Source: Candidatus Poribacteria bacterium
GTDB lineage: Bacteria; Poribacteria; WGA-4E; PCPOR2b
Direction: 5' to 3'
NCBI GenBank assembly: GCA_965215015.1
Contig: OZ244042.1
Coordinates: 2,272,001-2,336,000, forward strand
DNA length: 64,000 bases
In this document: one piece after another, positions 19,220-60,757 of the stretch
Numbering within the stretch: position 1 is the first letter of the stretch
How the letters are laid out: every line of letters starts with the position of its first letter
Translations under genes and position numbers: made by a program
Notes under the pieces: generated by a model
The model's database searches: none
What the model was told of the DNA's origin: nothing
Seen by the model: the letters and a program-made list of their open reading frames with translations, nothing else

Positions 19220-19257
19220 TAAATCTTATAATTGCGTTTTGTAAAGGAGAACTCTCT

Positions 19258-35177: not shown

Positions 35178-35183
35178 TAACCA

Positions 35184-35229
35184 TTCATTGGTACATTGGT
35201 TTCATTAATGAAACCAATGTACCAATGAA
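35184..35229. repeat. Perfect 46-bp palindrome with no spacer
   Basis: TTCATTGGTACATTGGTTTCATT|AATGAAACCAATGTACCAATGAA. Confidence 0.9.
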
Positions 35230-35263
35230 CCAACTGTATTTGCCTTCATAAAGGAGGGAGACA

Positions 35264-36193
35264 ATGTTTCAACTTAGGCGTAAATTACTATTCAGTTCAA
35301 TCGGGCTAGTTGCCCTCGGTGTTTTGCTTGCACCCGTCTGCTTCGCCGGTGTGAATGCTGCACCCCATCTCGGAATGGGTAGCGGGGCGCGGCCCCTCGG
35401 AATGGGCGGTGCCTTTACCGCCATCGCGGACGATGCGACTTCAACAATATGGAATCCCGCCGGGATACCGGCTGTGGATGATTTAACTCTAACACTATCT
35501 TCGGCACGGCTATCTCTTGATAGAAAACACAGCTTTATCGGCTTAATCAAAAAGGTCGGTGCCAATGGCGGATTGGGTTTGGCTGTGGTCAATGCCGGCC
35601 TCGATGATATGCCTTCCAGAACCGCCGCGGATGTCGGGACTGGTGCATTTAACTGGAATTTCAACGCCTATTCCCTTTCCTACGGCCATGATCTCGGTGC
35701 CGTAGGTCTCGGTATAAGCGGACGTTTACTTATGGATAGCTTCGGAGATCATTCGAGCAAAAGCGGTTTCGGCGGTGTTGATGTGGGGCTTCTCGGGCAC
35801 AACAAAGCCAGTACCTTCAGCTATGGCCTCGCAGGTAGAAATATCGGTGGTACAATCGCTGGAAGCGAGTTATCTCCTCTCATCGCTGGGGGTCTCGCCT
35901 ATCGAGTCCTCCACAAGCACGTGGCGACCTTCGCCGTTGATGTCCAACACGAGATCGTTGACCTGTCAGAGTCCACAACCAGCCTCCATCTTGGTACCGA
36001 GTACCTGATAGCAAAAACCTTTGCCATTCGGGGCGGCAGCAAACTGACCACTGATCGCCGTCAGTTCTTCGTTGGATTTGGTGCCAATGTCGGTGGACTT
36101 CAACTCGATTATGCCTTGAAAGCTGCTGATAGTGCTGTCAATAACCTCGACGACGACAACACACATTTCGTATCACTCTCTTATAGCTATTAA
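35264..36193 (+). CDS. PorV/PorQ-like (FadL-fold, UPF0164) outer-membrane beta-barrel
   Basis: Signal peptide; GARPLGMGGAFTAIADDATSTIWNPAG signature; amphipathic strands; C-terminal THFVSLSYSY beta-signal. Confidence 0.85.
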   Translation: MFQLRRKLLFSSIGLVALGVLLAPVCFAGVNAAPHLGMGSGARPLGMGGAFTAIADDATSTIWNPAGIPAVDDLTLTLSSARLSLDRKHSFIGLIKKVGANGGLGLAVVNAGLDDMPSRTAADVGTGAFNWNFNAYSLSYGHDLGAVGLGISGRLLMDSFGDHSSKSGFGGVDVGLLGHNKASTFSYGLAGRNIGGTIAGSELSPLIAGGLAYRVLHKHVATFAVDVQHEIVDLSESTTSLHLGTEYLIAKTFAIRGGSKLTTDRRQFFVGFGANVGGLQLDYALKAADSAVNNLDDDNTHFVSLSYSY

Positions 36194-36391
36194 TTTTTGC
36201 AATGAGTGGATAAGGGCTTTTCGATAAATTTAACGCCAAGGCGTTCCCCCCACTCCCGAATACCCCCAGTACCCTCCAATATTCTTCCCTCCCCGCTTGC
36301 GGGGAGGGTTAGGGTGGAGTTCTTGCGGGGGCGGGCTTCCCACTACTTATTTCCTTAATTTTAACGAACCGATTCTACAAAGGAGCATCCT

Positions 36392-37264
36392 ATGAAGACG
36401 ATGAAATCAATCCTACGCTTCTCGCTTATCCTTTCTCTCTGTCTAGCTTTGACTGGGGCAGCCTATATCCTCACTGCCTCTGCCAAAATTGTTCCCAAGC
36501 CGGACATGGAGGGCACAAAGCTCATTACCCTTGTTGAGGGGGATACCCTGTGGGATCTCGCTGCAGAACATCTCGAAGATCCGCTTAGATGGCCAGAATT
36601 CAAAGAGTACAACGATTTTACCAATCCTGACCGAATCTACCCCGACGAGATGATGCGAGTCCCTGTCAAAATGGTGATGGAGATGGTACAGGAAGCTGTT
36701 GCGGAAGAAATGGTAACCTTGTCAGAGCTTGAGATGATTCAAGAAGAACTGGCTGCTACGGCAGAGAAGCTCGCTGCCACGGAAGCCGAAGCGATGGCCG
36801 CAAAAGAGGCTGTGGGGGTTACCGCAGCCGATGTAACCGCCATCAAAATGATGGTTGAAGACCTAATCGCGAGGCAGAAAATGGTCGAAGGCGGTCTCCA
36901 AGATGTACAAGGTCAGTTGACAGAAGCCGCTGCCAAACTTAATGTTTCCCTGATGGAACACGCTGAAGCCAGCAAAAAGAAAATCTCAAAGGCTCATAAA
37001 GAGGTCGAAGCGGCGCGGGAAGATATCAAAAAACTCCGCAAGACGGTAAAGGAGAATCACAAAGCAGGTATGGAGTCGCTCAAAGCCTCCGAAGAGATAC
37101 TTGCGGCAGGCATTAAGGCGAATGCAGAAAGCCTCGACAAGCTCCACGCAATTGAGCGGGGCGCAACAGAAGAACCGAACCAATCAAAACGGACGCTCGC
37201 ATTCCTAACTACGTTGGCGGGTGGAGCCGCTTGGTTTGCCATCAATGCCATAGGTTCGGATTAG
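36392..37264 (+). CDS. LysM-domain coiled-coil protein with C-terminal hydrophobic anchor
   Basis: Signal peptide; LVEGDTLWDLA..W..N..NPDRIYP LysM; long heptad-rich helix; hydrophobic tail. Confidence 0.8.
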   Translation: MKTMKSILRFSLILSLCLALTGAAYILTASAKIVPKPDMEGTKLITLVEGDTLWDLAAEHLEDPLRWPEFKEYNDFTNPDRIYPDEMMRVPVKMVMEMVQEAVAEEMVTLSELEMIQEELAATAEKLAATEAEAMAAKEAVGVTAADVTAIKMMVEDLIARQKMVEGGLQDVQGQLTEAAAKLNVSLMEHAEASKKKISKAHKEVEAAREDIKKLRKTVKENHKAGMESLKASEEILAAGIKANAESLDKLHAIERGATEEPNQSKRTLAFLTTLAGGAAWFAINAIGSD

Positions 37265-37295
37265 CTCTTCTAAAAAACAACACATTTTTATTTTG

Positions 37296-37332
37296 AGCAG
37301 GGATAGTGCACTTATCTATCCCTGCTTTTTTT
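37296..37332 (+). terminator. Intrinsic terminator
   Basis: AGCAGGGATAG-loop-CTATCCCTGCT followed by a T run. Confidence 0.8.
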
Positions 37333-37354
37333 ATCTAATCTTGCTGGCACGTTC

Positions 37355-37515
37355 GTAGTAGTGCAATTCATTGCACGTCAACATTGGCTTAAAACGGTAG
37401 ATGGGGCAAGATTCCCCGTATACGGGGTTGGAAGTACTTTGTTTTTCAAGTTATAGAGTTTTAGTCATAGCGACTTCATTGCACGTGGTTAGTAGTAGTG
37501 CAATTCATTGCACGT
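37355..37515 (+). repeat. GTAG REP copies
   Basis: GTAGTAGTGCAATTCATTGCACGT at 37355 and 37492, plus a degenerate copy near 37465. Confidence 0.75.
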
Positions 37516-37626
37516 CTAGATTGTGCGTTTCTTACGGGTTCTTCCTCCCCTTGCGATTGAATGGTTGGGAGTTTAATGGCAGTCGCGTCTTAAAACTAGT
37601 AACGACTTATCCCCTTAGTTTTCACT

Positions 37627-38226
37627 ATGATTGACTCCAAACAATTCCAAGACACAATCCATCATTTCATTGAGCTCTACGGAGACCGCACCGAAGCAAT
37701 TGGCGATGAAATCCACGCCGGACTGGCATGGATAGAAAAAAAACAGTTGGTTCTGATCGTAGGAGGTGAAGCAGCCACACTCCAGCCCCCCAGTTGGCGT
37801 CGTGTATCACGGCTGTTCGATCTTGCCAAACAATTCCGGCGACCCGTACTGCTGTGGGATGTTCCATTCCGGGCGGACGCAACCGGTCCAGCCACCACCC
37901 TACTCGACAAGCATGCGGCACAAAATAGTCACCTACACCTACTGAAGCTACCCGTCCCCATCATCGGTATCTTTGATCAATTACCTCTCGAGCCCAACTT
38001 TGCCCCGCTTGATGCGGCGGTCCTCTTACAACAGCCGGAGGCAAATCCCCGGTCACAATCTTCAGGGGGTGAAACTTCCACAATTGTAGTCAAGGTAGCA
38101 GACAGTCCTGCCCACCTCAAATCAGATATTCTAGAACTACTCAGCTATCTGTCAACCTTACCGGTCAAAAGGTTGGTCAACCAACGATTGGACACCCTCC
38201 GCCACGCCGTTGGGGGACGCCGCTAA
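37627..38226 (+). CDS. Divergent, shortened acetyl-CoA carboxylase carboxyltransferase alpha (AccA)-like protein
   Basis: FIELYGDR, RLFDLAKQFRRPVLLWD, LKLPVPII and LSTLPVKRLVNQRLDTLR are colinear with AccA motifs; GEGGSGGA is missing. Confidence 0.6.
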   Translation: MIDSKQFQDTIHHFIELYGDRTEAIGDEIHAGLAWIEKKQLVLIVGGEAATLQPPSWRRVSRLFDLAKQFRRPVLLWDVPFRADATGPATTLLDKHAAQNSHLHLLKLPVPIIGIFDQLPLEPNFAPLDAAVLLQQPEANPRSQSSGGETSTIVVKVADSPAHLKSDILELLSYLSTLPVKRLVNQRLDTLRHAVGGRR

Positions 38227-38260
38227 TATATGTGTACGCGGGGGGCAATCAGCCTGGCTC

Positions 38261-38372
38261 GTAGTAGTGCAATTCATTACGCGTTGTTCGTAGTAGTGCA
38301 ATTCATTGCACGTCTGTTTTGTCGTAGCGACTTCATTGTGTGTTGTTGGTAGTAGCGCAATTCATTACGCAT
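38261..38372 (+). repeat. Four tandem GTAG REP copies
   Basis: Copies at 38261, 38290, 38321 and 38349. Confidence 0.8.
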
Positions 38373-38411
38373 CAGTCATATAGAGGAAGGAGGCTCTTAG
38401 AAAAAAATAAC

Positions 38412-38440
38412 TTGACATCTATAGCACAATAGCGTAAAAT
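38412..38440 (+). promoter_or_regulatory. Sigma70 promoter
   Basis: TTGACA-N17-TAAAAT. Confidence 0.7.
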
Positions 38441-38505
38441 TAACTAAGATTTGACGGTTCTAAGAGTGTTGAATAGCTGCAACTTCAAAAAAGGAGAGAC
38501 ACATC

Positions 38506-39258
38506 ATGAAAATCCAATCACTTTTTACCCTGTTGCTGGCATGTGCATTCGCTTTTCTGAGCGTATATCCGGCGGATGCCGTCATCTACGGCAAACGAGG
38601 GGACGACGAAGCCACCATCCCTTGGGCAGAAGGAATCAAGCATTGGGAACCGGGGCCCGGTGCACAGGCAGAAGTTAAAGGAGATGTACTTGAGCTGCAA
38701 TCTCAAGGGAACACCGGGCTCTTTTTCAATCACCCGGACGTCACCCCTGCAGAGTTGACTGACTATGAGTTAGAAGTGTCTGCGCGAAAAATCGGAGACG
38801 ATAGCAAATACTTCCATCTCTTTACCCGGACCGTTGTACCGACCAAAGACTTCTATTTTGTCGAGGTCAGCTACAACTCCAACACCATCTCAATGTATGA
38901 ATTTAACGACGGTGCAGCCCATGAAATTACCCCCGGCGGTAACGCTGGACGCCCCAAACGACCTGATTCAAAGGACACCAAGGGCGGCGAGCACTATGTT
39001 CTCACATTTTCGGTTGAAAAGAATATCCTCAAGTACTCCGTTGATGGTAGATTATCAATCGTCGTGCAAAACAATAAATGGGCAAAAGGCCCTCCAGGAA
39101 TTGGTGGACGTGGCGGCCAAGTGAATTACTATTGGGTCCGTGTTGATTCTTTGCCGGAGCAGGGATTGCAGAACATCCCCTCAACGGACAAACAATTGTC
39201 AGTCGATAGCGCGGGCAAGCTGGCCACAACGTGGGCAAAGCTGAAACGTGGTTTCTAA
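38506..39258 (+). CDS. Secreted beta-jelly-roll (ConA/DUF1080-like) protein with KLATxW-type C-terminal tail
   Basis: Signal peptide; TDYELEV, HYVLTFSVE..LKYSVDG and KGPPGIG strands; tail LSVDSAGKLATTWAKLKRGF. Confidence 0.75.
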   Translation: MKIQSLFTLLLACAFAFLSVYPADAVIYGKRGDDEATIPWAEGIKHWEPGPGAQAEVKGDVLELQSQGNTGLFFNHPDVTPAELTDYELEVSARKIGDDSKYFHLFTRTVVPTKDFYFVEVSYNSNTISMYEFNDGAAHEITPGGNAGRPKRPDSKDTKGGEHYVLTFSVEKNILKYSVDGRLSIVVQNNKWAKGPPGIGGRGGQVNYYWVRVDSLPEQGLQNIPSTDKQLSVDSAGKLATTWAKLKRGF

Positions 39259-39431
39259 GAATTAATATATTTCAGAGGGTGGGGCTGTGCAGGCCAGGCG
39301 GTCATCGGTTTGGCAAGCCAACTCCATCCCGATAGGCACAAGACGGGCGTGCCTTGGACATAGGGAAGCGAGTCCTTGAGCACCGGAGCGTGCCTGCTAC
39401 TATGTAAGAAAGACAAGGTCTCTAGCATAAC

Positions 39432-39469
39432 AGGGGTGGGGCATCAATGAATGTCTCGCCCCTTTTTTT
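39432..39469 (+). terminator. Intrinsic terminator
   Basis: AGGGGTGGGGCAT-loop-ATGTCTCGCCCCT followed by a T run. Confidence 0.65.
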
Positions 39470-39504
39470 ATCAAAAATCCTTTAGAGGCAATCCCCATTC
39501 CCCT

Positions 39505-39615
39505 CCGCTTTCGTTCTTGCCCTCCCCGCTAAATACCCGGCGGGTTGTCCGTTAGTTCCTCGCTCATTGAGCCTAGAAAGGTCTGATACCGTGTGGGTAT
39601 TTGGGGATTGGGGGA
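39505..39615 (-). repeat. Dispersed repeat family C copy
   Basis: Reverse complement of 18648-18780, but without the 34-bp GC-rich insert. Confidence 0.75.
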
Positions 39616-39617
39616 CT

Positions 39618-41540
39618 TTAACGATAGAACGAATAGACCTCAATCCCCCAAAAGACACGGATGAGCACCCAACCCCCACCGACTATATACTCTCCGAACA
39701 GCAACCCCAAGAAAAAAGGCAATGTCTTCCGATAGAGCCGAATCCCACCGACCTTCAACACCGTCGCTTTTACCGCCCAACTGATAAATACCGAAAACCA
39801 TACCCAGCCGAAAGTCCAAGGGCTGCTGGCAATCGCGTAACCAGCGGGATGGAAGGGCCACAGTGGAAAGCGCACACGAATCGCCCAGAGGAACCCGGTA
39901 AAGAGGAAGCCGACCCCCATAAAAAGCACTGCGGGCACATCGGTCCCCGTTGGATTGTAGAGCCAGTTCCGCATATTGGCATACGCCCCGTTTCCCAACC
40001 CCACATTAATATTATCGCCACCGCTGCTGTAGGCGAGCGTAAGGTATGCCCAAAAGGTGGTCAAGATACCCGCCACAGTCGCCAAAACCATTATACCAAT
40101 TAAGCGGCGATGCGCCATCTGCGTCGCGTCCGCTACCTTGAATGCTTCCAGTGTGTGTGGCATCGGGTGGGCGCGATAACCGCGGTTGAAGGTGTAGTAA
40201 AACCCCATCATAACCAAACTCGGCGGCGGAATTCGACGAGTACCGATTGCGTCTGTGATGAAAAGACGGGGATTGACAAGGAACATCTCATTCGTCGGCG
40301 GCCCCACTTCCGCGCGGATGCGCCCTACAGCAATGGCCAAAAGGTAGTAGGTCAGAAAGTAGAGACCCGCCATCCAGAGCGTCATCCCACCGTAGTAGGA
40401 AAAAGCGAATAAGAAGATTACCCCGCCCGTCAATCCCAACACCGCCCACCGATACTTCATCGGTTCGTTCTCTTCGCCGGGTTGATCGCGCCAAAGGTTC
40501 TTGAAGATCGAAATAAAGTAGCGGCGCCCGCCGTATAGGGCAAAACAGGCGATGGCGAAAAAGGCACCGATACTTTGGGGACCCTCATAGGGGAAGCCCG
40601 GAAAACTGGCAAGCCCCAACGCCCGTCCCAAGATACGCTCTGCCTTCCAAAAAAGAAAGAAAAACCACAGCGAGAAGGACATCTCCAGCGGCATCAGAAA
40701 CCCCAATCCAAGTCCGAAGGGTAGTGTATAGAGCGGTGTCCACCCCATCGCGTTCCACGGCTTTTCGGTGAAGAACTGACCTATCTCCGCTTTGCGCACG
40801 GGGATCTCCGGGAACGCAGGAAACAAGACATGCAGGCCGTTGATTAGGTCAATACCGCCTGCAACAGCAAAACCAAGCCACATCATTTTAGATTTGAAAA
40901 GCGTCCCATCGGAGCGGGTCATCTCCAACGGCAGCTGAACGATTGGATACGCCAGCCGCTCTCTGACAATCCACTGCCGTCGCAGGATGGCATCCATACA
41001 AATCATCACCCAGATCAGAACCGATAAAAGCACTGTCCACCACAAAATCGGGCGTAGCCACGGTTGGAAGTGTGCTCTTGTATAGGGGGTACTCTGCCCC
41101 TCATAGAAATCGAGCAGGCTTAATGGATCTCTCACCGTCAACCACGGGGGCAGGTATCGCCAGAAAAGTGCCTTCCATTCGTTCTCAGGGGTGGCGAACC
41201 AAAAACCGTGCGGAAGAGTCGGCACGACAGTTTGCATAACATCGTGACCCGCAATTGCTGAGGAGATCGAGAGCATCATATAGATAGTCATGAGCTCCCC
41301 TTGTTGCAGCACGAAACGCGGGAGAAAACGCTTGATCAGCGAGTTTATGATGATCAACACCGTAAGGCTGATAACCACGTTGTAGATCAGCGACATCGTT
41401 GTGGCCAGTGTGCCGATGTACTTGACCTCGTTCGTGATAATAAAATAGGTGTTGACCGGCATCAGTGCCAATGCAAGTATGACCGCACGAAACGTTAATC
41501 CTGTGTGTGGGGTTTTACTACCAATTGATTGTTCAGTCAT
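39618..41540 (-). CDS. Large polytopic membrane protein (DUF6785/DUF6784-type, putative transporter)
   Basis: About 15 TM segments; LRRQWIVRERLAYPIVQLP, RIRAEVG, WPFHPAGY and GGIRLYRKTLPFFLGL motifs. Confidence 0.75.
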   Translation of the reverse strand: MTEQSIGSKTPHTGLTFRAVILALALMPVNTYFIITNEVKYIGTLATTMSLIYNVVISLTVLIIINSLIKRFLPRFVLQQGELMTIYMMLSISSAIAGHDVMQTVVPTLPHGFWFATPENEWKALFWRYLPPWLTVRDPLSLLDFYEGQSTPYTRAHFQPWLRPILWWTVLLSVLIWVMICMDAILRRQWIVRERLAYPIVQLPLEMTRSDGTLFKSKMMWLGFAVAGGIDLINGLHVLFPAFPEIPVRKAEIGQFFTEKPWNAMGWTPLYTLPFGLGLGFLMPLEMSFSLWFFFLFWKAERILGRALGLASFPGFPYEGPQSIGAFFAIACFALYGGRRYFISIFKNLWRDQPGEENEPMKYRWAVLGLTGGVIFLFAFSYYGGMTLWMAGLYFLTYYLLAIAVGRIRAEVGPPTNEMFLVNPRLFITDAIGTRRIPPPSLVMMGFYYTFNRGYRAHPMPHTLEAFKVADATQMAHRRLIGIMVLATVAGILTTFWAYLTLAYSSGGDNINVGLGNGAYANMRNWLYNPTGTDVPAVLFMGVGFLFTGFLWAIRVRFPLWPFHPAGYAIASSPWTFGWVWFSVFISWAVKATVLKVGGIRLYRKTLPFFLGLLFGEYIVGGGWVLIRVFWGIEVYSFYR

Positions 41541-41600
41541 AATAAGAGTTCATGAGTCCATTGGTTCACGCAATGGAGCGCAAAACCGCCCCCTCTCCGC

Positions 41601-42022
41601 CCCTCCCCCTGTTGCGGGGGGATTGAGGGGGGTGCCTTCCCTCCCCCTGTTGCGGGGGGATTGAGGGGGGTGCCTCCCCTCCCCCTGCTTGCGAGGGGAT
41701 TGAGGGGGGTGCCTCCCCTCCCCCTACTTACGTGGAGACTGAGGGGGGTGCCTTCCCTCCCCCTACTTACGTGGAGACTGAGGGGGGTGCCTTCCCTCCC
41801 CCTGCTTGCGTGGAGACTGAGGGGGGTGCCTTCCCTCCCCCTGCTTGCGTGGAGACTGAGGGGGGTGCCTTCCCTCCCCCTGCTTGCGGGGGGACCGAGG
41901 GGGGCGCCTCCCCTCCCCCTACTTACGTGGAGACTGAGGGGGGTGCCTCCCCTCCCCCTGTTGCGGGGGGATTGAGGGGGGTGCCTTCCCTCCCCCTGCT
42001 TGCGGGGGGACCGAGGGGGGTG
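41601..42022 (+). repeat. Tandem array of 11 GC-rich palindromic units of 38-39 bp
   Basis: Unit CCCTCCCCCTGCTTGCGGGGGGATTGAGGGGGGTGCCTT with about 5 variants and no spacers. Confidence 0.92.
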
Positions 42023-42068
42023 AGGCTAGAGAGTGAGAGAGGATTCGACAGCACCAGCATACTGGTGA

Positions 42069-42854
42069 TTATGCGAGTGCCTTCAGGCGGTCGTTATCAA
42101 TCGGTTGTAGCGGTGTGAAATCGCGGTTGTTGTGATACCAGGCACGCTCCGTGCCCGTACAAGCGTTGCTGACAGCATTATAGTTCAAATACATAATCGC
42201 GCGTTGCCAAGGAGAGACATTGTTGGCTGAACCGTGTACGACATTGCAATGGCAAAAGCAGACAGATCCTGCGGGCCCTATCAATGCTTCGATACCACTT
42301 GCTCCAGCCAGCTGCTCTAGGGTGGGATGATCAATATGGTGCAAGGCATACCCCTTCGCGTCCTTATGGGGTGTGGAGTCGAGGAGGCCATACGTATGTG
42401 AGCCCGGCACGACCAGTAACGGCGACGTAACCGCTGTGCAATCGTCTATAAACACGGAGGCCATAATACACTTCGGTTCCGTCATCCCGTCAATGCGATG
42501 CCACGGTGGGAAATCTTGGTGCCAGTCCCAAGACGCACCACCCCCAAAGCCCTGTTTGGGATTGAGACGGCTCTGATGGAGATACACATCATCAGCCAAC
42601 AGTTGGCGGACCGGGTTCAGTAGGCGTGGAAGCAGCGGGAGATACCGGAACGGTTCAGAGTAGACATGCGCTCCAAAGGCAAGCCTGACGGAGTTCGGAT
42701 CATCTTTCTCAGGTATTACCTCCGGGCCCCGGCGACTGAGGATTTGCGGCATCGCCCGCTGCAAAATCTTCACCTCATCGGCCTCTAGTAGACTTGGAAA
42801 AAGCAGGTAGCCCTGTTGATTGAAGCGGGCGATTTGGGCGTCGTTCAGTCTCAT
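42069..42854 (-). CDS. Phytanoyl-CoA dioxygenase family 2OG-Fe(II) oxygenase (ectoine/proline hydroxylase-like)
   Basis: YLHQSRLNPK, WHQDF, VPGSH and HGSANN...R motifs. Confidence 0.9.
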   Translation of the reverse strand: MRLNDAQIARFNQQGYLLFPSLLEADEVKILQRAMPQILSRRGPEVIPEKDDPNSVRLAFGAHVYSEPFRYLPLLPRLLNPVRQLLADDVYLHQSRLNPKQGFGGGASWDWHQDFPPWHRIDGMTEPKCIMASVFIDDCTAVTSPLLVVPGSHTYGLLDSTPHKDAKGYALHHIDHPTLEQLAGASGIEALIGPAGSVCFCHCNVVHGSANNVSPWQRAIMYLNYNAVSNACTGTERAWYHNNRDFTPLQPIDNDRLKALA

Positions 42855-42941
42855 GGTATCTATTCCGTATACCGAGAATTACTATTAGCCCCATCCTCAC
42901 AAAGGAAGAGACTGGGGAGGTTCAACCTCCCCAACCTGTTT

Positions 42942-44021
42942 TCACCGTTGACTCTTTAACGCGCCCCATTTCGTAGCTAACTTTTCCCGTGGATCAACCG
43001 AGAATTTCGCAGGGAAGGGCCAACCGGGTGGCTGATAGACCTCATTTTCTATCTCCTGTGCACCCGCACCGCCGTTCCAACCGCCAATGGTATAGATCTT
43101 TCCATTGGTGACAGCGACTCCAAAACTTCCCCTCGCAGTGGGCATCGGGTCCATGCGACGGAATTTATCCTCCTCTGGCGAGTATTCCCAGACATCGTGG
43201 TAAAAGACAAGATCCGGATCGTTGCCGCCCCCCTTAATTCCGCCTTTGCCCTTAAATTTCTCACCGCCCATGACATAAATTTTACCGCTATTGACAAAGG
43301 CGGCAGCGAAATTGTGAACGGGCCTCTGTATCTTTGCTTTGGGGGCCCATGTTTCTGTTTTGGTATCGTATTCGTCCACGTCCGTGGTTGACTCCTTATG
43401 GGTGAAATCGGTCGCGCCGCCAAAGATATAGATTTTCCCTTTGCCCGGCACAGCGGCACCCGCCGCTCCCCATCTTGGATTCGGCATGTCCTTTTTCTGC
43501 TCCCAAGTGTCGGTCACGGGGTTGTATACCTCGATCGCCGGAGACGGGAAAAAGACATCGGTTGCACCACCAACAGTATAAATCTTGCCACTCAACACGA
43601 CGGTTACCGGAGCGATTCGCGGCGTTGGCATGTCCGCTTTCCTCGACCAGGTGTCCGTCTTCGGGTCATACATTTCTACCGCTGCCACAGGTGCAATTCC
43701 GTCACGGGTCCCACCGATGACATAAACCTTCCCATCGTAAGAGACGGCGGTGTGACGCACCCGACCTGTAGGTATCGGCTTCTTTTCGACCCAGCTATCC
43801 TTATCTATGTTGTACTCTTCATTTTTGGAGATCTGGGGTGTATCATCTTGTCCGCCGATGGCGTAAACCTTGTTACCGACAGCGGCGGCTTCGACTCCCC
43901 ATCTATGCGTTGGCATCGGCTTCAATTTACGCCAGGCTGCGGAGCTGACCGTAGTGAAGCAAAAACTAAACAGTCCACATAGGATCAACCCTGCTAACAT
44001 TTGATAGCTTGTTCGCTTCAT
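42942..44021 (-). CDS. Secreted Kelch-repeat beta-propeller 1 with C-terminal tail
   Basis: Signal peptide; six GKIYxxGG...EYD...W repeats; tail FSVDPREKLATKWGALKSQR. Confidence 0.92.
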   Translation of the reverse strand: MKRTSYQMLAGLILCGLFSFCFTTVSSAAWRKLKPMPTHRWGVEAAAVGNKVYAIGGQDDTPQISKNEEYNIDKDSWVEKKPIPTGRVRHTAVSYDGKVYVIGGTRDGIAPVAAVEMYDPKTDTWSRKADMPTPRIAPVTVVLSGKIYTVGGATDVFFPSPAIEVYNPVTDTWEQKKDMPNPRWGAAGAAVPGKGKIYIFGGATDFTHKESTTDVDEYDTKTETWAPKAKIQRPVHNFAAAFVNSGKIYVMGGEKFKGKGGIKGGGNDPDLVFYHDVWEYSPEEDKFRRMDPMPTARGSFGVAVTNGKIYTIGGWNGGAGAQEIENEVYQPPGWPFPAKFSVDPREKLATKWGALKSQR

Positions 44022-44055
44022 CGTAATACCTCCTTGTTATTGCAAAACAGATTTG

Positions 44056-45126
44056 CTATTGATAGTTTTTAATCTCTCCCCATATCGTCGCTAGCTTGTC
44101 TTGGGGCTCGACCGAGAATTTCTCAGGGAAGGGCCAACCGGGCGGCTGATAAACGTGCATGCCATTTTCGTCACCGGCACCGCCCGCCCAGCCGGCGATG
44201 ACATAGATACGCCCATCCTCAACGGCAGATCCATAACTCGACTTTGCCTTGGGCATGGCTTGCATGCGACTCCACTTATCCTTTTCTGGTGAGTATTCCC
44301 AGACATCGTCATAGAAGGTCCAATCCGGGTCGTTAGCACCCCCATCAACGCCCCCTTTACCTTTCCATTTCTGACCGCCCATGACATAAATCATGCCACT
44401 GTTCACAAAGCTAGCGGAAAAATTATGAAGAGGCCGCTGCAACTTGGATTTGGGCGTCCAAGTCTCCGTTCTCGTATCGTATTCATCCACATCCGTGGTG
44501 GAGTTTTCGTGGGTGAAATCGGTTGCACCGCCAAAAATATAAATCTTCCCTTTGGTTGCGATGCCAGCACTAGCTGCCCCCCATCTTGGATTCGGCATAT
44601 CTGCCTTCTTCTCCCAAATGTCCGTCGTGGGGTTGTATACCTCGATCACCGGAGAGGGAAAGTAGAGGTCGGTTGCGCCGCCGATAACATAAATATTTGA
44701 ACTCATTGCGACCACCATCGGAGCAATCCTCGGGGTCGGCATATCCGCCTTCATTTTCCAGACATCGTTTTTGGGGTCATATTCCTCGACCCGCCCCACG
44801 GCACCAATCCCATCGAAGGTGCCCCCAAAGACATAAATCTTACCCTTGAAAGTGACCGCAGCGTGCCGCACTCGACCGCTCGGTATCTCCTTTCTCTCCT
44901 CCCATTTGCCCTGTCCTATATCAAATGCTTCTACTTTTGAAATCTTGGGGCTATCATCCTGTCCTGCGATGGCGTAAACTGTGCCACCGACAGCGGCAGC
45001 GGCTAACCCCCATCGACCCGTTGGGATAGGTCTCAACTCTCTCCAGGCTCCAAAGCCTGCCGCCGAAAAGCCGAACAGACTACATAACAACAATCCCGCT
45101 AACATTTGATATCTTGCCCGTTTCAT
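44056..45126 (-). CDS. Secreted Kelch-repeat beta-propeller 2
   Basis: Same architecture as propeller 1; tail FSVEPQDKLATIWGEIKNYQ. Confidence 0.92.
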   Translation of the reverse strand: MKRARYQMLAGLLLCSLFGFSAAGFGAWRELRPIPTGRWGLAAAAVGGTVYAIAGQDDSPKISKVEAFDIGQGKWEERKEIPSGRVRHAAVTFKGKIYVFGGTFDGIGAVGRVEEYDPKNDVWKMKADMPTPRIAPMVVAMSSNIYVIGGATDLYFPSPVIEVYNPTTDIWEKKADMPNPRWGAASAGIATKGKIYIFGGATDFTHENSTTDVDEYDTRTETWTPKSKLQRPLHNFSASFVNSGMIYVMGGQKWKGKGGVDGGANDPDWTFYDDVWEYSPEKDKWSRMQAMPKAKSSYGSAVEDGRIYVIAGWAGGAGDENGMHVYQPPGWPFPEKFSVEPQDKLATIWGEIKNYQ

Positions 45127-45151
45127 GTTACAGACCTCCTGTAAAAATTGA

Positions 45152-45271
45152 GACTCATGTTAAGAAATCGTGCAGCAGAAACCGTTAAAGCAGTAGGCAC
45201 GCTCCACGTGCCGTAAAATGAACCTATGAACCAATGGTTTTCGCGCTTCGCACTTTCTTTTAACATGAGTC
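45152..45271. mobile_element. MITE family B copy
   Basis: GACTCATGTTAAGAA...TTCTTTTAACATGAGTC; flanks AAAATTGA/AAGATTCA; internal GTAGGCACGCTCCACGTGCC. Confidence 0.7.
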
Positions 45272-45344
45272 AAGATTCAATTTGGCTCCCCTTCAGAGAA
45301 CCCGACGCTTTCCCGGTTGAGTGATAGTTGTCTCCAAAATAGAT

Positions 45345-45985
45345 GAGGGGTGCTCATAATTATTGGTTGTGTGTTTTCCTGCCCGCGGCGTGTGCCTACT
45401 CCCTTTTTCAGTTTGTAGTAGCGTGTTCATTGCGCGTCCCAACGGGTGATGAATCCCCCTACTACATACCTGAGGAGTATTCATACATAATTATCTGAAT
45501 CGCAGATGCAGCAGATGACACAGATACAGATATGAATCTCAGACGGTAGATGAGGCAAGAGCCCCCACCTACGGGGGGTGGAGATATTTTGTTTTTCGCC
45601 ATTATGATTGGGATTTTAGTTGTGTATTTTCCTTCCCGCGGCGTGTGCCTACTCCTTTTTTCAGTTTGTAGTAGCGCGTTCATTGCGCGTCCCAACGGGT
45701 GATTAATCCCCCTACTACATACCTGAGGGCTGCTCATAATTATTGTCTGAATCGCAGATGACACAGATACAGATATGAATCTCAGACGGTAGATGAGGCA
45801 AGAGCCCCCACCTACAGGGGGTGGAGATATTTTGTTTTTCCTAATGCCGTAACGATAGTGTGTTTTCCGGCCCGTGAATCGTGCCTACTCCTTTTTTTCA
45901 GTTTGTAGTAGCGCAATTCATTGCGCGTCCCAACGGGTGATTAATCCCCCTACTACATACCTGAGGGCTGCTCATAATTATTGTC
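45345..45985 (+). repeat. About 2.5-3 tandem units of about 240 bp, each with an inverted REP doublet (BIME-like)
   Basis: GTAGTAGCG..CATTGCGCGTCCCAACGGGTGAT.AATCCCCCTACTACATACCTGAGG at 45415, 45668 and 45905. Confidence 0.85.
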
Positions 45986-46026
45986 TTGTCTGAATCACGG
46001 AATTTAACGCAAAGTCACACCCCTTT

Positions 46027-46115
46027 CCCTCCCCGCTAAATACCCGGTGGGTTGTCCGTCAGTTCCTGGCTCATTGAGCCTAGAACGGTCTGATACCGTG
46101 TGGGTATTCGGGACT
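46027..46115 (-). repeat. Dispersed repeat family C copy
   Basis: Matches 39520-39605. Confidence 0.7.
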
Positions 46116-46132
46116 GAGTGGGGTTCTTGGAG

Positions 46133-47221
46133 CTACCGACGCCGTTTAATATCCCCCCATATCGTCGCTAGCTTGTCCTTGGGTGTGACCGAAAACGCTT
46201 TGGGGAAGGGCCAACCCTCAGGCGTATAGACTTCCGTCTCTCTCCGAGGGCCTCCGCCCCCGTGCCCACCGACCGCATAAATCTTCCCATTTAAGACAGC
46301 AGTTGCCAAAGTTGCCCGTGGGGTTGGCAGCTGATCCTTTAGCCTGGCCCATTTATTCTTCTCTAAGTCATATTCAAAGACAGTCCAATGCAAGATCCAC
46401 CCCTCAATCGGTTGACCATCTCTTTCGTTGCCGTTAAAGGTCCTCCCTCCAATGGCGTAAGCCTTTCCATTGTTGACAAAACCCACTGACATATCGTAAT
46501 AGGCGAGCGGCATGTTCGCTTTCTTGGTCCAAGTATCTGTCTTCGGGTCATATTCCTCGGTCAGGTCAGTATACTTTTGATGGGTGTTATCCACAGCACC
46601 GCCACAGATGTAAATCTTACCCCTAGCCGAAAAAACACCCGCACCCCATCTTGGGTTAGGCATATCCGCCTTCTTCTCCCATGTGTCGGTTACAGGGTCA
46701 TAGACCTCGACAGCAGCAGAGGGGAAAAAGAAGGAGTCCGCGCCACCGATGACATAAATCTTGCCACCCACTACCGCGGTAAGCGTTGACATCCTCGGGG
46801 TGAGCATATCCGCTTTGGCAGTCCATGTATCTGTCTTGAGATCGTATTCATCTACCAACGGAACCGCTTGGAAATTATCCTCCGTTCCCCCAAAAGCGTA
46901 AATCTTCCCTCTGACGAGGGCACTACTTACCCGAAATCTGCCTCGCTGCCATTTCTGTTTTACCTCCCACGCATCACGCACGGGATCATATTCTCCCACA
47001 AATCTACCCGGAGGTTTCAAATCATCCTGCCCGCCAAAGCCGTAAAGCTTATCGTTAAACGCTTCGACGCCTAACCCCCAGATACCTACAGCACGCGGGC
47101 CTAATTGTGGCAGATTGACTTTTTTCTCCCATTCTCCCGCGAAGCTGACCGCTGAAAAGCCGAACAGTCCGCACACTATCAAGCTTGTTAAAATGCTATA
47201 TGTAATATCGTGTTTTCTCAT
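46133..47221 (-). CDS. Secreted Kelch-repeat beta-propeller 3
   Basis: AGGAG RBS, signal peptide, six Kelch repeats, tail FSVTPKDKLATIWGDIKRRR. Confidence 0.92.
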   Translation of the reverse strand: MRKHDITYSILTSLIVCGLFGFSAVSFAGEWEKKVNLPQLGPRAVGIWGLGVEAFNDKLYGFGGQDDLKPPGRFVGEYDPVRDAWEVKQKWQRGRFRVSSALVRGKIYAFGGTEDNFQAVPLVDEYDLKTDTWTAKADMLTPRMSTLTAVVGGKIYVIGGADSFFFPSAAVEVYDPVTDTWEKKADMPNPRWGAGVFSARGKIYICGGAVDNTHQKYTDLTEEYDPKTDTWTKKANMPLAYYDMSVGFVNNGKAYAIGGRTFNGNERDGQPIEGWILHWTVFEYDLEKNKWARLKDQLPTPRATLATAVLNGKIYAVGGHGGGGPRRETEVYTPEGWPFPKAFSVTPKDKLATIWGDIKRRR

Positions 47222-47238
47222 GAGCAACTCCTAGTTTT

Positions 47239-48318
47239 TTATTGACTACGTTTAATTTTTCCCCATATCGCCGCTAGCTTGTCTTGAGGATCGACCGAAA
47301 AGCCGGCGGGGAAGGGCCAACCGTCGGCGGTGTATACCTCTGTAATTCCGGGGATGCCATTATGCCCCGCGATGGCATAAATCTTCCCATCTAGAACGGT
47401 TGAGGCTAAGCTCGCCCGTGGGGTTGGCATCTGATCCTTTAACCTGGCCCATCTATTCTTCTCCAAGTCGTATTCAAAAACGGTCCAATGATAGGTCCAA
47501 CCGTCAATTAGGCGTCCATCTCTGTCGTTACCGTCAAATGTCCTGCCCCCGATGGCATAAGCCTTTCCACTGTTGACAAAGCTCACCGCCATATCGTAAT
47601 AGGCGACTGGCATGTCTGCTTTCTCCGTCCAGGTGTCCGTCTTCGGATCGTATTCTTCCGTCAGGTCGGTATACTTTTGATGGCTCTGATCCACGGCACC
47701 ACCACAAACGTAAATCTTCCCCCTAGCAGCAAAAACGCCCGCCCCCCATCTCGGGTTAGGCATATCTGCCTTCTTCTCCCATGTGTCGGTTACGGGGTCA
47801 TATACTTCGACAGCGGCTGACGGAAAGTAGAAGGATTCCGCACCGCCAATGACATAAATCTTCCCACCCACCACGGCGGTTGCTGTCATCATTCTGGCGG
47901 TTGGCATATCGGCTTTAGGGGTCCACGTGTCCGTCTTCGGGTCGTACTGGTCCAAGAATGGGACCGCCTGAAAATTATCCTCTGTTCCTCCAACGGCATA
48001 GATTTTCCCTCTCACCAAAGCACTGCCCAACCGAAATCTGCCCCTTGGCCATTTCTTAAGTCTAATCCATTTGTCTCGATCTGGGTCGTATACATGCACC
48101 AATTTGCCCGCAGGCTGCAAATCATCTTGTCCGCCAAAGACATAAATTTGCCCATTGACCGCCTCGGCACCCAACCACCAAGCACCGCCTGAAATAGCAC
48201 CCATTTTGGGCAGCGTGGCTTTCTCTTCCCATTTTCCCCCCAAAGCCATTGTCGACAACCCAAATATTCCACACGCTACCAATCCCGGTATCAGGTAATG
48301 TAGTATCCGATGCTTCAT
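47239..48318 (-). CDS. Secreted Kelch-repeat beta-propeller 4
   Basis: GGAGG RBS before ATG 48318; tail FSVDPQDKLAAIWGKIKRSQ. Confidence 0.92.
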   Translation of the reverse strand: MKHRILHYLIPGLVACGIFGLSTMALGGKWEEKATLPKMGAISGGAWWLGAEAVNGQIYVFGGQDDLQPAGKLVHVYDPDRDKWIRLKKWPRGRFRLGSALVRGKIYAVGGTEDNFQAVPFLDQYDPKTDTWTPKADMPTARMMTATAVVGGKIYVIGGAESFYFPSAAVEVYDPVTDTWEKKADMPNPRWGAGVFAARGKIYVCGGAVDQSHQKYTDLTEEYDPKTDTWTEKADMPVAYYDMAVSFVNSGKAYAIGGRTFDGNDRDGRLIDGWTYHWTVFEYDLEKNRWARLKDQMPTPRASLASTVLDGKIYAIAGHNGIPGITEVYTADGWPFPAGFSVDPQDKLAAIWGKIKRSQ

Positions 48319-48338
48319 GATATACACCTCCATCTTTT

Positions 48339-49421
48339 TTATCGTTTCTGCTTAATCGCTCCCCATCTTGTTGCTAACTTGTCTTGAGGATCGACCGAAA
48401 AGCCGGCGGGGAAGGGCCAACCGTCAGGGGTATATACCTCTACTTCTCTGCGTGGACCGTTGTGATGTCCCCCAATAGCGTAAATCTTCCCATCCACAAC
48501 GCTTGTCGCTAAGGTGCCCCGGCCAGTTGGCATCTGATCGTTTAGCCTTTGCCACCTATTCTTTTCGACATCATATTCCAATACCGTCCAATGAAGAACC
48601 CAGCCTTGGAACTTGGGGCCATCTTTTTCTCTTCCATCGATAGTCTTCCCACCGATGATATACGTCTTCCCACTGTTGACAAAACTGGCTGCCATGTCGA
48701 AAAATGCAATCGGCATATCGGCTTTCTTGGTCCAAGTATCTGTCTTCGGGTCGTACTCCTCGGTCAGGTCGGTATACTTTTGATGGGTGTTATCCACAGC
48801 ACCGCCAAAGATATAAATCTTACTTTTAACCACCACGGCCGGCATCCCCCATCTCGGATTGGGCATGTCTGCTTTCTTTTCCCACGTATCCGTTACAGGA
48901 TCATAGACCTCGACAACAGGGCTTGGAAAGAAGAAAGATTCCGCGCCGCCAATAGTATAAATTTTTCCACCCACCGCGGCGGTGGCGAATCCCATTCTTG
49001 CCGTTGGCATCGCCGCCTTAGCAGTCCATGTGTCCGTTTTAGGATCATACTCATCAACATTGGGAAGGGCTTCAAAGTTATTCGCTGTGCCACCAAAGGC
49101 GTAAATCTTACCTCTCACCGTGGCGGTGCCGAGCCGAAATCTGCCCTGTGACAATTTCTTCTTATCCACCCAGTCATCCTTTACGGGGTCATATTCTTTC
49201 ACAACTTTGCCCGGATTTTCCAAATCATCTTGGCCTCCAATGGTATAAATCTTTCCATTCAGCACTTCGGTGCCTAACCCCCATAACCCGCCGGAAAGGG
49301 CACCGATTTTCGGCATATCCGCTTTCTCTTCCCACTCTCCCGCAAAGCTGATTGTCGAGAAACCGAACATCCCGCACACTATCCAGCCTGTTAGGAGGTA
49401 ACGTAATCTCTGATATTTCAT
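48339..49421 (-). CDS. Secreted Kelch-repeat beta-propeller 5
   Basis: GGAG RBS before ATG 49421; tail FSVDPQDKLATRWGAIKQKR. Confidence 0.92.
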   Translation of the reverse strand: MKYQRLRYLLTGWIVCGMFGFSTISFAGEWEEKADMPKIGALSGGLWGLGTEVLNGKIYTIGGQDDLENPGKVVKEYDPVKDDWVDKKKLSQGRFRLGTATVRGKIYAFGGTANNFEALPNVDEYDPKTDTWTAKAAMPTARMGFATAAVGGKIYTIGGAESFFFPSPVVEVYDPVTDTWEKKADMPNPRWGMPAVVVKSKIYIFGGAVDNTHQKYTDLTEEYDPKTDTWTKKADMPIAFFDMAASFVNSGKTYIIGGKTIDGREKDGPKFQGWVLHWTVLEYDVEKNRWQRLNDQMPTGRGTLATSVVDGKIYAIGGHHNGPRREVEVYTPDGWPFPAGFSVDPQDKLATRWGAIKQKR

Positions 49422-49451
49422 AATGTACATCTCCATCCGCTTACTGCCTCC

Positions 49452-49523
49452 GTGAATTCTCACACACTTAGTCCCTAGCTTGTCGTAGGGAAAAATAGCA
49501 AATTTCTCAGGGAATGGTCAATC
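49452..49523 (-). pseudogene. Relic 3' end of a sixth, deleted Kelch gene
   Basis: Translates D*PFPEKFAIFPYDKLGTKCVRIH, matching GWPFPEKFSVEPQDKLATIWGEIK. Confidence 0.7.
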
Positions 49524-49612
49524 CACTTCCACTACTAGTGTGGGCGAACAACAACCATCTTCCCAACCCCGGTTACAGTATCCACCCATGTTTTGTCAAA
49601 AAAATCAAAATC

Positions 49613-49641
49613 ATTCTATCAGACATTGTTATTTTTGTCAA
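49613..49641 (-). promoter_or_regulatory. Sigma70 promoter for the Kelch array
   Basis: Minus strand TTGACA-N17-TAGAAT with an extended -10 TG. Confidence 0.65.
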
Positions 49642-49679
49642 GTTAAAATCTCCCCCTAAATAGGGACATTTAATTCTCT

Positions 49680-49930
49680 TGAGGAGGGACTTCCGAATCC
49701 CGACGCTTGGTTCATCGGTTGATTACCCCCTTAACCCCAAATCCCCACACGGTATCAGCCCCCTAAGGACCCTCACCCCCCGCAAGCAGGGGGCAATCGG
49801 CTCAATGCACCTGACTCCCTCCACTTGTGGGGGGTGAGGGGAGGCTTAAGCGTTTTGCCCCTTCCGCTTTCGTCCTTCCCCCTCCGCTTACAAATTCCCC
49901 CCTGCTTGCGGGGGGGTTAGGGGGGAGGAT
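49680..49930. repeat. Cluster of GC-rich palindromic repeats (REP, family C fragments, CCCCCTGCTTGCGGGGGG units)
   Basis: GAGGGACTTCCGAATCCCGAC; CCCCACACGGTATCAG; CCCCCCGCAAGCAGGGGG; CCCCCTGCTTGCGGGGGGTTAGGGGGG. Confidence 0.65.
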
Positions 49931-50036
49931 TCTTTTTCAACTGTTCAAAGGGATTGATTTATAACTTGGTTTATGCTAAACTTAGGTTTGCAATCGAAAA
50001 ATATCCACATCACGAGATAGAGGATGGATCTGATCC

Positions 50037-50663
50037 ATGTTTGAAGCAAAGCTAAGATCAAAAATCAGTGCGATGCTCTCACCCATCGCACGGAAAATTG
50101 TATCGATCGGCATCACTGCGAATATGGTCACGATGTTTGGTTTGCTAGTTAATTTGGTGGCTGCCTGCTGTTTAGCGACAGAACGGTTGATAGCGGCAGG
50201 GGTATTGATTTTATTCGGGGCGAGTTTTGATATGATAGATGGTGCGGTTGCGCGTGCGAGAACGTTGACCAATTCTTCGGGAGCACTGCTGGACTCGGTG
50301 ATTGATCGGTATTCGGAGGCGGTGATATTCCTTGGTGCCCTTATCTATTTTCATCATTTACAGAACTTCTTCGGGGTGGTATTGGTTTTTGCAGCGGTGA
50401 TTGGATCGATACTTGTCAGCTACGTGCGTGCCAAAGCGGAGGGGCTTCAAATTGAGTGTAAGGTCGGACTGATGCAACGACCCGAACGGATTATTTTATT
50501 AGCGTTGGGGGTTATAGGGCAAGGGATAATCCCAGACCAATATACCTTTTTGCAATCAAAGGGAATTATCCTCTTCGGCGTATTTGCAATTCTTGCTGTC
50601 ACCGCACATATCACCGCTATCCATCGACTCGTCTTCTCTTTTTACAAACTGAGTGATCATTGA
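50037..50663 (+). CDS. CDP-alcohol phosphatidyltransferase
   Basis: ANMVT, DMIDGAVAR...GALLDSVIDRYSE, VSYVRAKAE and GLMQRPER motifs (PI/PIP synthase-like subfamily). Confidence 0.92.
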   Translation: MFEAKLRSKISAMLSPIARKIVSIGITANMVTMFGLLVNLVAACCLATERLIAAGVLILFGASFDMIDGAVARARTLTNSSGALLDSVIDRYSEAVIFLGALIYFHHLQNFFGVVLVFAAVIGSILVSYVRAKAEGLQIECKVGLMQRPERIILLALGVIGQGIIPDQYTFLQSKGIILFGVFAILAVTAHITAIHRLVFSFYKLSDH

Positions 50664-60722: not shown

Positions 60723-60757
60723 CTTGAAAAACTCCTTTCCAAGTGTATCGGAGAATC

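Follow-up and report, generated by a model that had tools for sequence, protein, structure and literature searches.

We studied a 64-kb stretch of DNA from Candidatus Poribacteria (hereafter, the window), in which six genes encode predicted secreted proteins that share a C-terminal tail of about 20 residues. The tail had been pointed out in an earlier note, which suggested that it could be a signal for export or surface anchoring. On present evidence, the tail is a portable C-terminal peptide tag that occurs almost only in Poribacteria, and it may act as such a signal. All six open reading frames (ORFs) named in the note exist, and their ends are exactly as quoted there (Table 1).

We searched the six-frame translation of the whole window with the strict motif [FL]SV.[PS]..KLA[TA].W[GA].[IL]K. 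It occurred six times, each time with a stop codon three residues later. Looser versions of the motif gave no extra matches in the same translation. At the DNA level, a degenerate pattern of the core matched the window six times against 0.00 expected, and none of 100 dinucleotide-preserving shuffles of the window contained any core match.

Table 1. Tail genes, their tails and the neighbouring transporter-like gene in the window
Feature	Position	Strand	Evidence
Secreted DUF1080-type (concanavalin-like) jelly-roll protein with tail, predicted, 250 amino acids	38506..39258	+	ORF, hhalign, Atlas
Tail LSVDSAGKLATTWAKLKRGF, A replaces G after W	39196..39255	+	Motif search
DUF6785/DUF6784 polytopic membrane protein, predicted OPT/Yellow-Stripe-like fold	39618..41540	-	Pfam DUF6785 E 1.5e-166, DUF6784 E 8e-31
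Secreted Kelch propeller 1 with tail, 359 amino acids	42942..44021	-	Kelch_1 E 3e-47
Tail FSVDPREKLATKWGALKSQR	42945..43004	-	Motif search
Secreted Kelch propeller 2 with tail, 356 amino acids	44056..45126	-	Kelch_1 E 7e-46
Tail FSVEPQDKLATIWGEIKNYQ	44059..44118	-	Motif search
Secreted Kelch propeller 3 with tail, 364 amino acids	46133..47227	-	Kelch_1 E 1e-43
Tail FSVTPKDKLATIWGDIKRRR	46136..46195	-	Motif search
Secreted Kelch propeller 4 with tail, 364 amino acids	47239..48333	-	Kelch_1 E 1e-48
Tail FSVDPQDKLAAIWGKIKRSQ, A replaces T	47242..47301	-	Motif search
Secreted Kelch propeller 5 with tail, 374 amino acids from GTG	48339..49463	-	Kelch_1 E 1e-45
Tail FSVDPQDKLATRWGAIKQKR	48342..48401	-	Motif search

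Five of the six proteins had been taken for Kelch propellers, and Kelch_1 did match each of them, with E values from 1e-43 to 1e-48. The scores were 146.8-162.5 bits, compared with the Pfam cutoff of 20.1, and there were four to six matching stretches per protein. These five paralogues are 45-67% identical. Among them, 10 of the last 20 residues are invariant, compared with 110 of 359 overall. The true start of Kelch propeller 5 is probably an internal Met codon just before the signal peptide. Sec-like signal peptides, which the note had reported for all six proteins, were recognized in every case by a hydrophobicity heuristic and by eye.

The sixth protein, encoded from position 38506, had no Pfam or NCBIfam match. 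In profile-profile comparison with tailed proteins of the DUF1080/3keto-disac_hyd type, hhalign gave a probability of 98.5% (E 3e-15) over 152 columns including the domain core, and the nearest Atlas clusters were Poribacteria 3keto-disac_hyd families (score 0.98); the shared tail contributes part of both scores. An AlphaFold2 (AF2) model built from 13 near-identical sequences had a mean predicted local distance difference test score (pLDDT) of 37 and was not used. It put a short helix over the tail, which is uninformative at pLDDT below 30. As judged from these comparisons, the protein is a predicted divergent concanavalin-like jelly roll of the DUF1080 type. Its fold would thus differ from Kelch, as had been claimed.

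When the tail region of the 38506 protein was used in a word-indexed search, the matches were 12 close orthologues (230-251 amino acids), one relative of 290 amino acids (P0013) and a weak one to Laminin_G_3. Eleven of the 12 orthologues were aligned, and all 11 have kept the tail. In P0013 the tail is degenerate (ETLATIWDTLK) and about 40 more residues come after it; this protein may be a copy in decay or one produced by read-through. As word-indexed searching is too insensitive for a motif of 20 residues, it was replaced by a scan with a DNA pattern and by profile searches.

Position, distribution and hosts of the tail

The pattern used to scan genomes was the back-translated core K-L-A-T-x-W-G-x-[ILMF]-K, with the stop codon and the upstream residues left out. 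It was run over one genome per species for 185,579 bacterial and archaeal species. At least 134 loci were found, and 130 of those listed have the motif at a C-terminus. By label, these 130 comprise 112 from Poribacteria, 16 from 'uncultured bacterium', one from Planctomycetota and one from Deltaproteobacteria. The other four of the 134 listed loci are chance matches in tiny ORFs, labelled Prevotella, Hyphomicrobiales, Gemmataceae and Acutalibacteraceae. The earlier note had described the motif as common in Poribacteria proteomes; among the matches listed, a restriction to this phylum is borne out, with only two from other named phyla. Both of these (L098 and L105) have real-looking tails with three residues before the stop, and they lie on short contigs of 2.7 and 3.8 kb in the Planctomycetota and Deltaproteobacteria bins. 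In L105, only 15 codons of ORF precede the tail. They could be mis-binned Poribacteria DNA or a rare occurrence outside the phylum. Among the matches listed, three chromosomes have at least four tail loci each.

The distance between the core and the stop codon was counted in the 141 distinct DNA-pattern matches listed. One residue follows the core in 10 matches, two in 33, three in 63, four in 14, five in eight, six in five, and seven and eight in one each. In two matches there are 12 residues, and four chance matches have 17-43. The tail is therefore strictly C-terminal, as proposed, with at most eight trailing residues in 135 of the 141. The number of trailing residues had been described as fixed at three. 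This is true of all six tails in the window and fails across the family, where it varies from one to eight with a mode of three.

From 134 tails (alignment A1) we made a profile of 22 positions, and with it searched 1.84 billion cluster representatives without word indexing. At E<=0.001 there were 295 matching proteins, of which the best had E 7e-8. Among the best 150 of these 295, at most eight residues follow the core in 143 (exactly three in 76) and 10-24 follow in seven, and the tail never precedes another domain. Short proteins are common in the profile matches, with 70 below 100 amino acids; we infer that they are gene fragments from contig ends. Against a set of 5.8 billion proteins the best E value was 7e-7, and no match in this set bears a name from any source.

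The consensus of the family is [LF]-[APS]-V-[ED]-[PA]-x-[GD]-K-L-A-T-T-W-G-x-[LI]-K, followed by one to eight mostly basic or polar residues. Conservation extends to positions outside the search pattern: V at -5 (97%), P or A at -3 (91%), A, P or S at -6 (87%), E or D at -4 (72%), G or D at -1 (68%) and T at core position 5 (59%). All synonymous codons occur where K, L, A, T and G are invariant. Thus, selection on the tail is at the peptide level and sequence-specific, and the idea of a DNA-level element was ruled out. In the 4-kb loci, the commonest neighbour of a tail gene was another tail gene, often with a variant tail. Therefore, the strict pattern captures only part of the tail family, whose genes tend to be arranged in tandem, as in the Kelch array of the window.

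The proteins that carry the tail (hosts) were surveyed in two sets: 79 complete ORFs from the listed loci and 44 independent representatives of at least 190 amino acids. Each host was assigned to the family of its top Pfam match at E<=0.001, some of these matches being below the curated cutoffs. Laminin_G_3 was the family of 44 locus ORFs and 13 representatives (one of the latter weak). 3keto-disac_hyd hosts numbered four and six, respectively, and Kelch hosts zero and six. Two locus ORFs and no representatives matched CBM9_1, and the same counts were found for DUF3108_like. F5/8 type C (F5_F8_type_C), DUF4960 and ankyrin hosts each occurred once in either set. There were also weak matches to DUF7383 in one locus ORF and to DUF5074 in one representative. 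No Pfam match was found in 23 of the 79 locus ORFs and 15 of the 44 representatives. The tail is therefore portable rather than part of one fold, as the note had argued: it occurs with eight Pfam families, seven in the locus ORFs and six in the representatives.

Signal-peptide-like N-termini were seen in 73 of the 79 ORFs and 37 of the 44 representatives, so that the tail is found on predicted exported proteins, not mainly on cytoplasmic ones. Of the six exceptions among the ORFs, five are fragments of 53-97 amino acids and the sixth has 168; of the seven among the representatives, five look truncated at the N-terminus. A lipobox-like sequence was present in only three of 116 hosts. The hosts are small (median 262 amino acids, interquartile range 249-279) and acidic, with a mean net charge of -12.9; their last 20 residues are basic (+2.2). 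In typical hosts the Laminin_G_3 match stops 26-32 residues before the C-terminus, so the linker to the tail must be short. This linker had been described as Pro-rich, which applies to the Kelch hosts (GWPFP..F) and not to the others. Apart from the binding domain, nothing in the hosts is conserved but the tail. As binding modules of this kind, the hosts would have the tail as their sole candidate connector.

One host has an unusual architecture. P0279 (445 amino acids) combines an extracytoplasmic function (ECF) sigma factor (Sigma70_r2 and r4), a signal- or anchor-like segment at about residues 184-206 and a tailed DUF1080 domain. This could be a real protein, a sigma factor tethered to the membrane with the tailed domain as its sensor, or else two genes joined in the gene call.

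Known sorting signals and candidate partners

No transmembrane (TM) helix was found in the tail, in agreement with the earlier note. Over the last 28-37 residues of 134 tails, the highest 15-residue Kyte-Doolittle mean was 1.27 and the average was 0.30, so no segment is TM-like. The tail was also said to look amphipathic, which we could not confirm. Its helical moment at 100 degrees was 0.285, the same as in shuffled tails (0.285), and on average 50% of the shuffled tails reached the observed value. The strand moment was 0.260, compared with 0.283 for shuffles, and the mean hydrophobicity was -0.11. An amphipathic helix or strand was thus rejected. The lack of both a TM segment and amphipathy argues against an amphipathic anchor that inserts by itself.

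We compared the tail with models of known signals. In NCBIfam there was no match for the six whole window proteins at E<=0.1 or for six isolated tails at E<=10 that concerned the tail, and no Pfam model covers it, either in the whole window proteins or in six isolated tails at E<=10. The PEP-CTERM model (NCBIfam TIGR02595 and its relatives) matched neither whole proteins nor isolated tails, and general domain scans of the window showed no exosortase (EpsH/Xrt) gene. LPXTG is absent from the tails, which have only a basic end in common with LPXTG/sortase substrates. The residue profile has no Cys or GlyGly at any conserved position. The C-terminal domain (CTD) of the type IX secretion system (T9SS; PF18962/TIGR04183) had no match on the six window hosts, the 79 locus hosts or the 44 representatives, and dockerin and cohesin models had none on the window hosts, locus hosts or representatives. 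Encapsulation peptides of bacterial microcompartments, which are terminal helices of cytoplasmic cargo, failed as a comparison because the hosts have signal-peptide-like N-termini. A sequence search of the PDB with the tail profile gave a single match (E 0.099), at the N-terminus of an adhesin, which was judged to be due to chance.

Literature searches with the motif strings returned no relevant paper, and the tail is not mentioned in the titles or abstracts listed for the Poribacteria literature on C-terminal, signal-peptide and sorting topics. Broader searches also listed nothing on it. Term searches in the accessible parts of PMC3909097 and PMC8546597 found no description of it. Hence, two further statements of the note hold: with no TM helix and no model match the tail differs from LPXTG, PEP-CTERM, GlyGly-CTERM and T9SS CTD signals, and no characterized role was found in Pfam, NCBIfam, the PDB or the literature searched. 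On every point that the note had named as able to refute its idea, the outcome was favourable to it.

The tail shares several features with tripartite CTERM signals (LPXTG/sortase, PEP-CTERM/exosortase, GlyGly-CTERM/rhombosortase and MYXO-CTERM/myxosortase). Like the tail, they are short, portable and strictly C-terminal, occur on Sec-exported proteins of many folds, are present in several copies per genome, are restricted to lineages, and have a basic end after a signature. In the tail this signature, V-[ED]-P, loosely recalls the PEP of PEP-CTERM. However, the tail has no TM helix between signature and basic end, and no invariant Cys, LPXTG or GlyGly. Without a TM helix or a model match it lies outside the tripartite CTERM/sortase signals. 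The T9SS CTD (Por_Secre_tail) with PorV is likewise a second address on Sec substrates of a diderm, but it is a folded domain with about 75 positions in the Pfam model, whereas the tail has about 20 residues. In the dockerin-cohesin system, varied secreted modules share one small C-terminal element for a common receptor, which is the picture favoured here. Dockerins are calcium-binding domains of about 70 amino acids. The tail differs in matching no dockerin or cohesin model, and any scaffold for it is hypothetical. The amphipathic segments of PBP5/DacA and MinD are also short C-terminal elements of soluble proteins with basic and aromatic residues; in contrast to them, the tail has no amphipathic periodicity, negative hydrophobicity and residue-specific conservation.

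Genes of the window were considered as possible partners of the tail. One was a barrel of the PorV/PorQ family at 35264-36193 on the plus strand (NF033709, 95.4 bits, cutoff 90), which the earlier note had named as a candidate. It starts 86 bases after the gene of a giant immunoglobulin-repeat protein of 2472 amino acids (27759-35177, plus strand), whose C-terminus matches FlgD_ig (36.7 bits) and Por_Secre_tail (32.9 bits, cutoff 27). This pairing with an adjacent protein carrying a T9SS-type CTD explains the barrel better than the tail does, and the 134 tail loci listed contain nothing like PorV. The barrel was therefore rejected as a partner on gene context. In the parts of PMC3909097 available to us, T9SS-type CTDs are the only such elements mentioned in Poribacteria; CTD-bearing proteins are reported there, without T9SS structural genes or a known secretion route. 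The giant protein and the barrel may be either a remnant or a CTD-handling module in minimal form.

Another was the DUF6785/DUF6784 gene, which sits between the 38506 gene and the Kelch array. Its AF2 model has a pLDDT of 87.7 and a predicted TM-score (pTM) of 0.89. A Foldseek search with this model found barley YS1 at probability 1.00 (E 2e-7, TM-scores 0.67/0.71), and the next matches had E>0.1. On this model, the protein is a predicted secondary transporter and not a protease, sortase or glycosyltransferase. Homologues with 38-42% identity lie directly beside tail genes at four loci: L043 (2398-4029), L045 (2973-4007), L065 (3-1775) and L119 (4-216). The tail hosts are an F5/8 type C protein at L043 and Laminin_G and DUF4960 proteins at L045 and L065, and the contexts of these last two loci are orthologous. 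In the window, L043 and L065 the transporter gene is downstream of a tail gene on the same strand. Among the listed loci, DUF6785 is the sole partner candidate from the window with a full-length homologue beside tail genes of other folds. Other neighbours that recur do so only in syntenic loci from related genomes, and proteases, sortases and barrels are not among the recurrent neighbours in the 4-kb listed loci.

The DUF6785 family is large, with 757 clusters at E<=1e-10 and at least three paralogues on apparently one contig. Several homologues that are 50-69% identical to the window protein are named Candidatus Poribacteria by their source. Members were also found in Armatimonadota and Bathyarchaeota, two groups without a tail among the matches listed. 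The chance of adjacency at four or more loci was estimated as P = 0.0003, 0.002, 0.02 and 0.15 for 3, 5, 10 and 20 copies per genome, respectively; for three or more independent contexts, the values were 0.004, 0.015, 0.08 and 0.33. The link between transporter and tail thus depends on copy number, and the transporter is a candidate associate by gene neighbourhood, a lead rather than a result. Complex prediction of the transporter (A4) with a 42-residue tail segment (A3) scored 0.00 in both runs and, as it was made without controls, speaks neither for nor against an interaction. We found no literature on DUF6785/DUF6784.

Possible roles of the tail

In the proposal that we favour, the tail is a tag for docking or addressing, and a single envelope protein shared by these modules binds it and thereby tethers or delivers them; we put the probability of this at roughly 0.45. 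Small, acidic, single-domain ligand-binding modules would be exported by Sec, with removal of the signal peptide. The tail, joined by a short linker, would then serve as a linear recognition motif for one common envelope protein. This protein would hold or deliver the modules, which have no effector part of their own, at a shared site, which could be the cell surface, a scaffold in the envelope or a transporter. The tail would be read by its sequence, not by membrane partitioning, and binding by a protein would fit with the fact that small and polar residues (A, T, T, G; V-E-P) are conserved. Tethering or sorting would be the outcome, and the tail may be cleaved.

Several points weigh against this proposal. 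No reader protein was found in the window or among the neighbours at the listed tail loci, which leaves binding, localization and processing hypothetical. The signal peptides were called by a hydrophobicity heuristic, and start codons of the 79 ORFs were chosen to maximize its score, which somewhat inflates their count. The ankyrin host P0229 has no recognizable signal peptide and may be a true exception to the linkage. That K, L, A, T, W, G and K hardly vary is in part a consequence of the search pattern or of the choice of best-scoring matches, and neighbouring paralogues do vary (KLT, KLS, KVA and KIA; WA and WS). The counts per genome and the absence from other phyla rest on the matches listed, from at least 134 loci. 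Moreover, if the P0279 fusion is real, it would be a module tethered to the inner membrane, which misfits a pure secretion signal.

The C-terminal position, Sec linkage, portability and lineage restriction would be equally expected of a second-step export signal, by which an outer-membrane translocon or a processing protease brings the modules through the outer membrane or onto it, perhaps with removal of the tail. Such a signal would be a functional analogue of the T9SS CTD or of PEP-CTERM-type signals, though short and lacking a TM segment. We consider this export signal unlikely. The V-[ED]-P signature, conserved segment and basic end do echo the order of tripartite CTERM signals, as far as these are covered by the sources used here, and the ankyrin and Kelch hosts are of the 'eukaryote-like' kind thought to act outside the symbiont, according to the available parts of PMC3909097. 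However, an intramembrane sortase would have no TM segment by which to hold its substrate, CTERM and CTD models gave no match even at E<=10, and neither the window nor the recurrent neighbours at the listed tail loci include a candidate translocon or protease. The fusion in P0279 would also keep the tailed domain at the inner membrane. A protein reader might even be dispensable if the basic, Trp-containing tail bound anionic lipid headgroups, lipopolysaccharide, peptidoglycan or exopolysaccharide directly. Otherwise soluble proteins such as PBP5 and MinD are known to be targeted to membranes by short C-terminal segments. The net charge of the tail, about +2.1 to +2.2 on domains with a mean of -12.9, and the invariant Trp flanked by Lys would suit such a self-sufficient anchor. 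It is rather unlikely, given that the tail has no helical or strand amphipathy and a negative mean hydrophobicity, and that A, T, T, G and V-E-P are kept as exact residues; anchors of a physicochemical kind usually keep only a pattern.

The shared envelope protein of our proposal could, more specifically, be the OPT-like DUF6785/DUF6784 transporter, on which the tail would dock the modules, so that they capture substrates for uptake. The homologues beside tail genes of differing host folds and in the window, the same-strand order in three of these places, the likeness to YS1 of the oligopeptide transporter (OPT) family, and an adjacency that chance hardly explains with up to five copies per genome all favour this idea. 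It is still improbable, because the family is large, the adjacency is marginal with 10 copies and not significant with 20 or more, two of the four loci are orthologous, and the family is present in two groups where the tail was not seen. In addition, we know of no OPT-family transporter that uses a binding protein. The invariance of K, T, T and W at fixed spacing and the oligopeptide-transporter-like gene nearby could also be accommodated by a site of modification or peptide release, with Thr-Thr glycosylation, a Lys-Trp crosslink or a cleaved C-terminal peptide. This seems very improbable: no radical SAM enzyme, glycosyltransferase or peptidase lies beside the window tail genes or recurs at the listed loci, and many hosts with near-identical tails would leave a released signal without specificity. 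Finally, the tail might have no sorting role at all, being an intrinsic structural or oligomerization element of the host domains, or an element at the DNA level. Most hosts are beta-sandwiches or propellers, which could in principle take an extra strand. This explanation is largely refuted, as the same tail is found on unrelated folds, including the alpha-solenoid of ankyrin repeats, and starts several residues past the end of the Pfam domain, and codon usage rules out the DNA-level form.

It is possible, if doubtful, that the tail belongs to a new second-step sorting or display system that works without a TM segment, in which an address of about 20 C-terminal residues is read in the periplasm by a dedicated receptor or translocon. 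If true, lectin-like, Kelch and ankyrin modules would be placed on the symbiont surface or released into the sponge matrix, and the tail would represent a hitherto unrecognized class of signals for second-step targeting in diderms, distinct from CTERM/sortase signals and from the folded T9SS CTD. In the part of the literature covered here, every short C-terminal tag described to date, LPXTG and MYXO-CTERM among them, has opened the way to a new sorting enzyme and a defined surface proteome. The tail has the same genomic signature, being portable, terminal, Sec-linked and lineage-restricted. As it is without the membrane span that those systems need, it should have a reader of another kind. The proteins that it marks form a coherent set, comprising secreted carbohydrate- or ligand-binding proteins and 'eukaryote-like' Kelch and ankyrin proteins. 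Poribacteria are a dominant uncultured phylum of sponge symbionts, and what is at issue is a protein route to the host interface. With E values down to 7e-8 among 1.84 billion proteins, the tail profile is specific enough for automatic annotation and as a bait in searches for partners.

Other features of the window

Three tandem repeats lie near the tail genes. A repeat with a 29-nt unit (3.8 copies, 38259-38370) is located just upstream of the 38506 gene, and another with a 253-nt unit (2.6 copies, 45369-45997) is in the 1-kb gap that splits the Kelch array. The third is a G+C-rich array at 41600-42022 with a 39-nt unit in 10.9 copies and 90% matches, or alternatively a 117-nt unit in 3.6 copies. 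It lies in the gap between the PhyH and DUF6785 genes and is the source of spurious ORFs at 41661-42118. An Rfam scan of 35000-50500 found nothing.

Two genes on the minus strand encode PhyH-domain dioxygenases. One (42069-42854), with the Kelch array on one side and the transporter gene on the other, has its best match in ectoine hydroxylase TIGR02408 with E 2e-45, below the cutoff; in the other (59364-60764), the domain is fused to HEAT repeats. A locus on a chromosome labelled Poribacteria (L125) has a match that is 88% identical over the first 65 residues of the window PhyH protein, and this match adjoins Kelch genes with the same tails as in the window. The titles of supplementary tables S10 and S11 of PMC3909097 indicate an expansion of PhyH proteins in Poribacteria. 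Farther upstream, at 19135-22014 on the plus strand, there is a gene for a protein of 959 amino acids with an N-terminal bacterial tubulin-like domain (Tubulin_2, E 1e-43).

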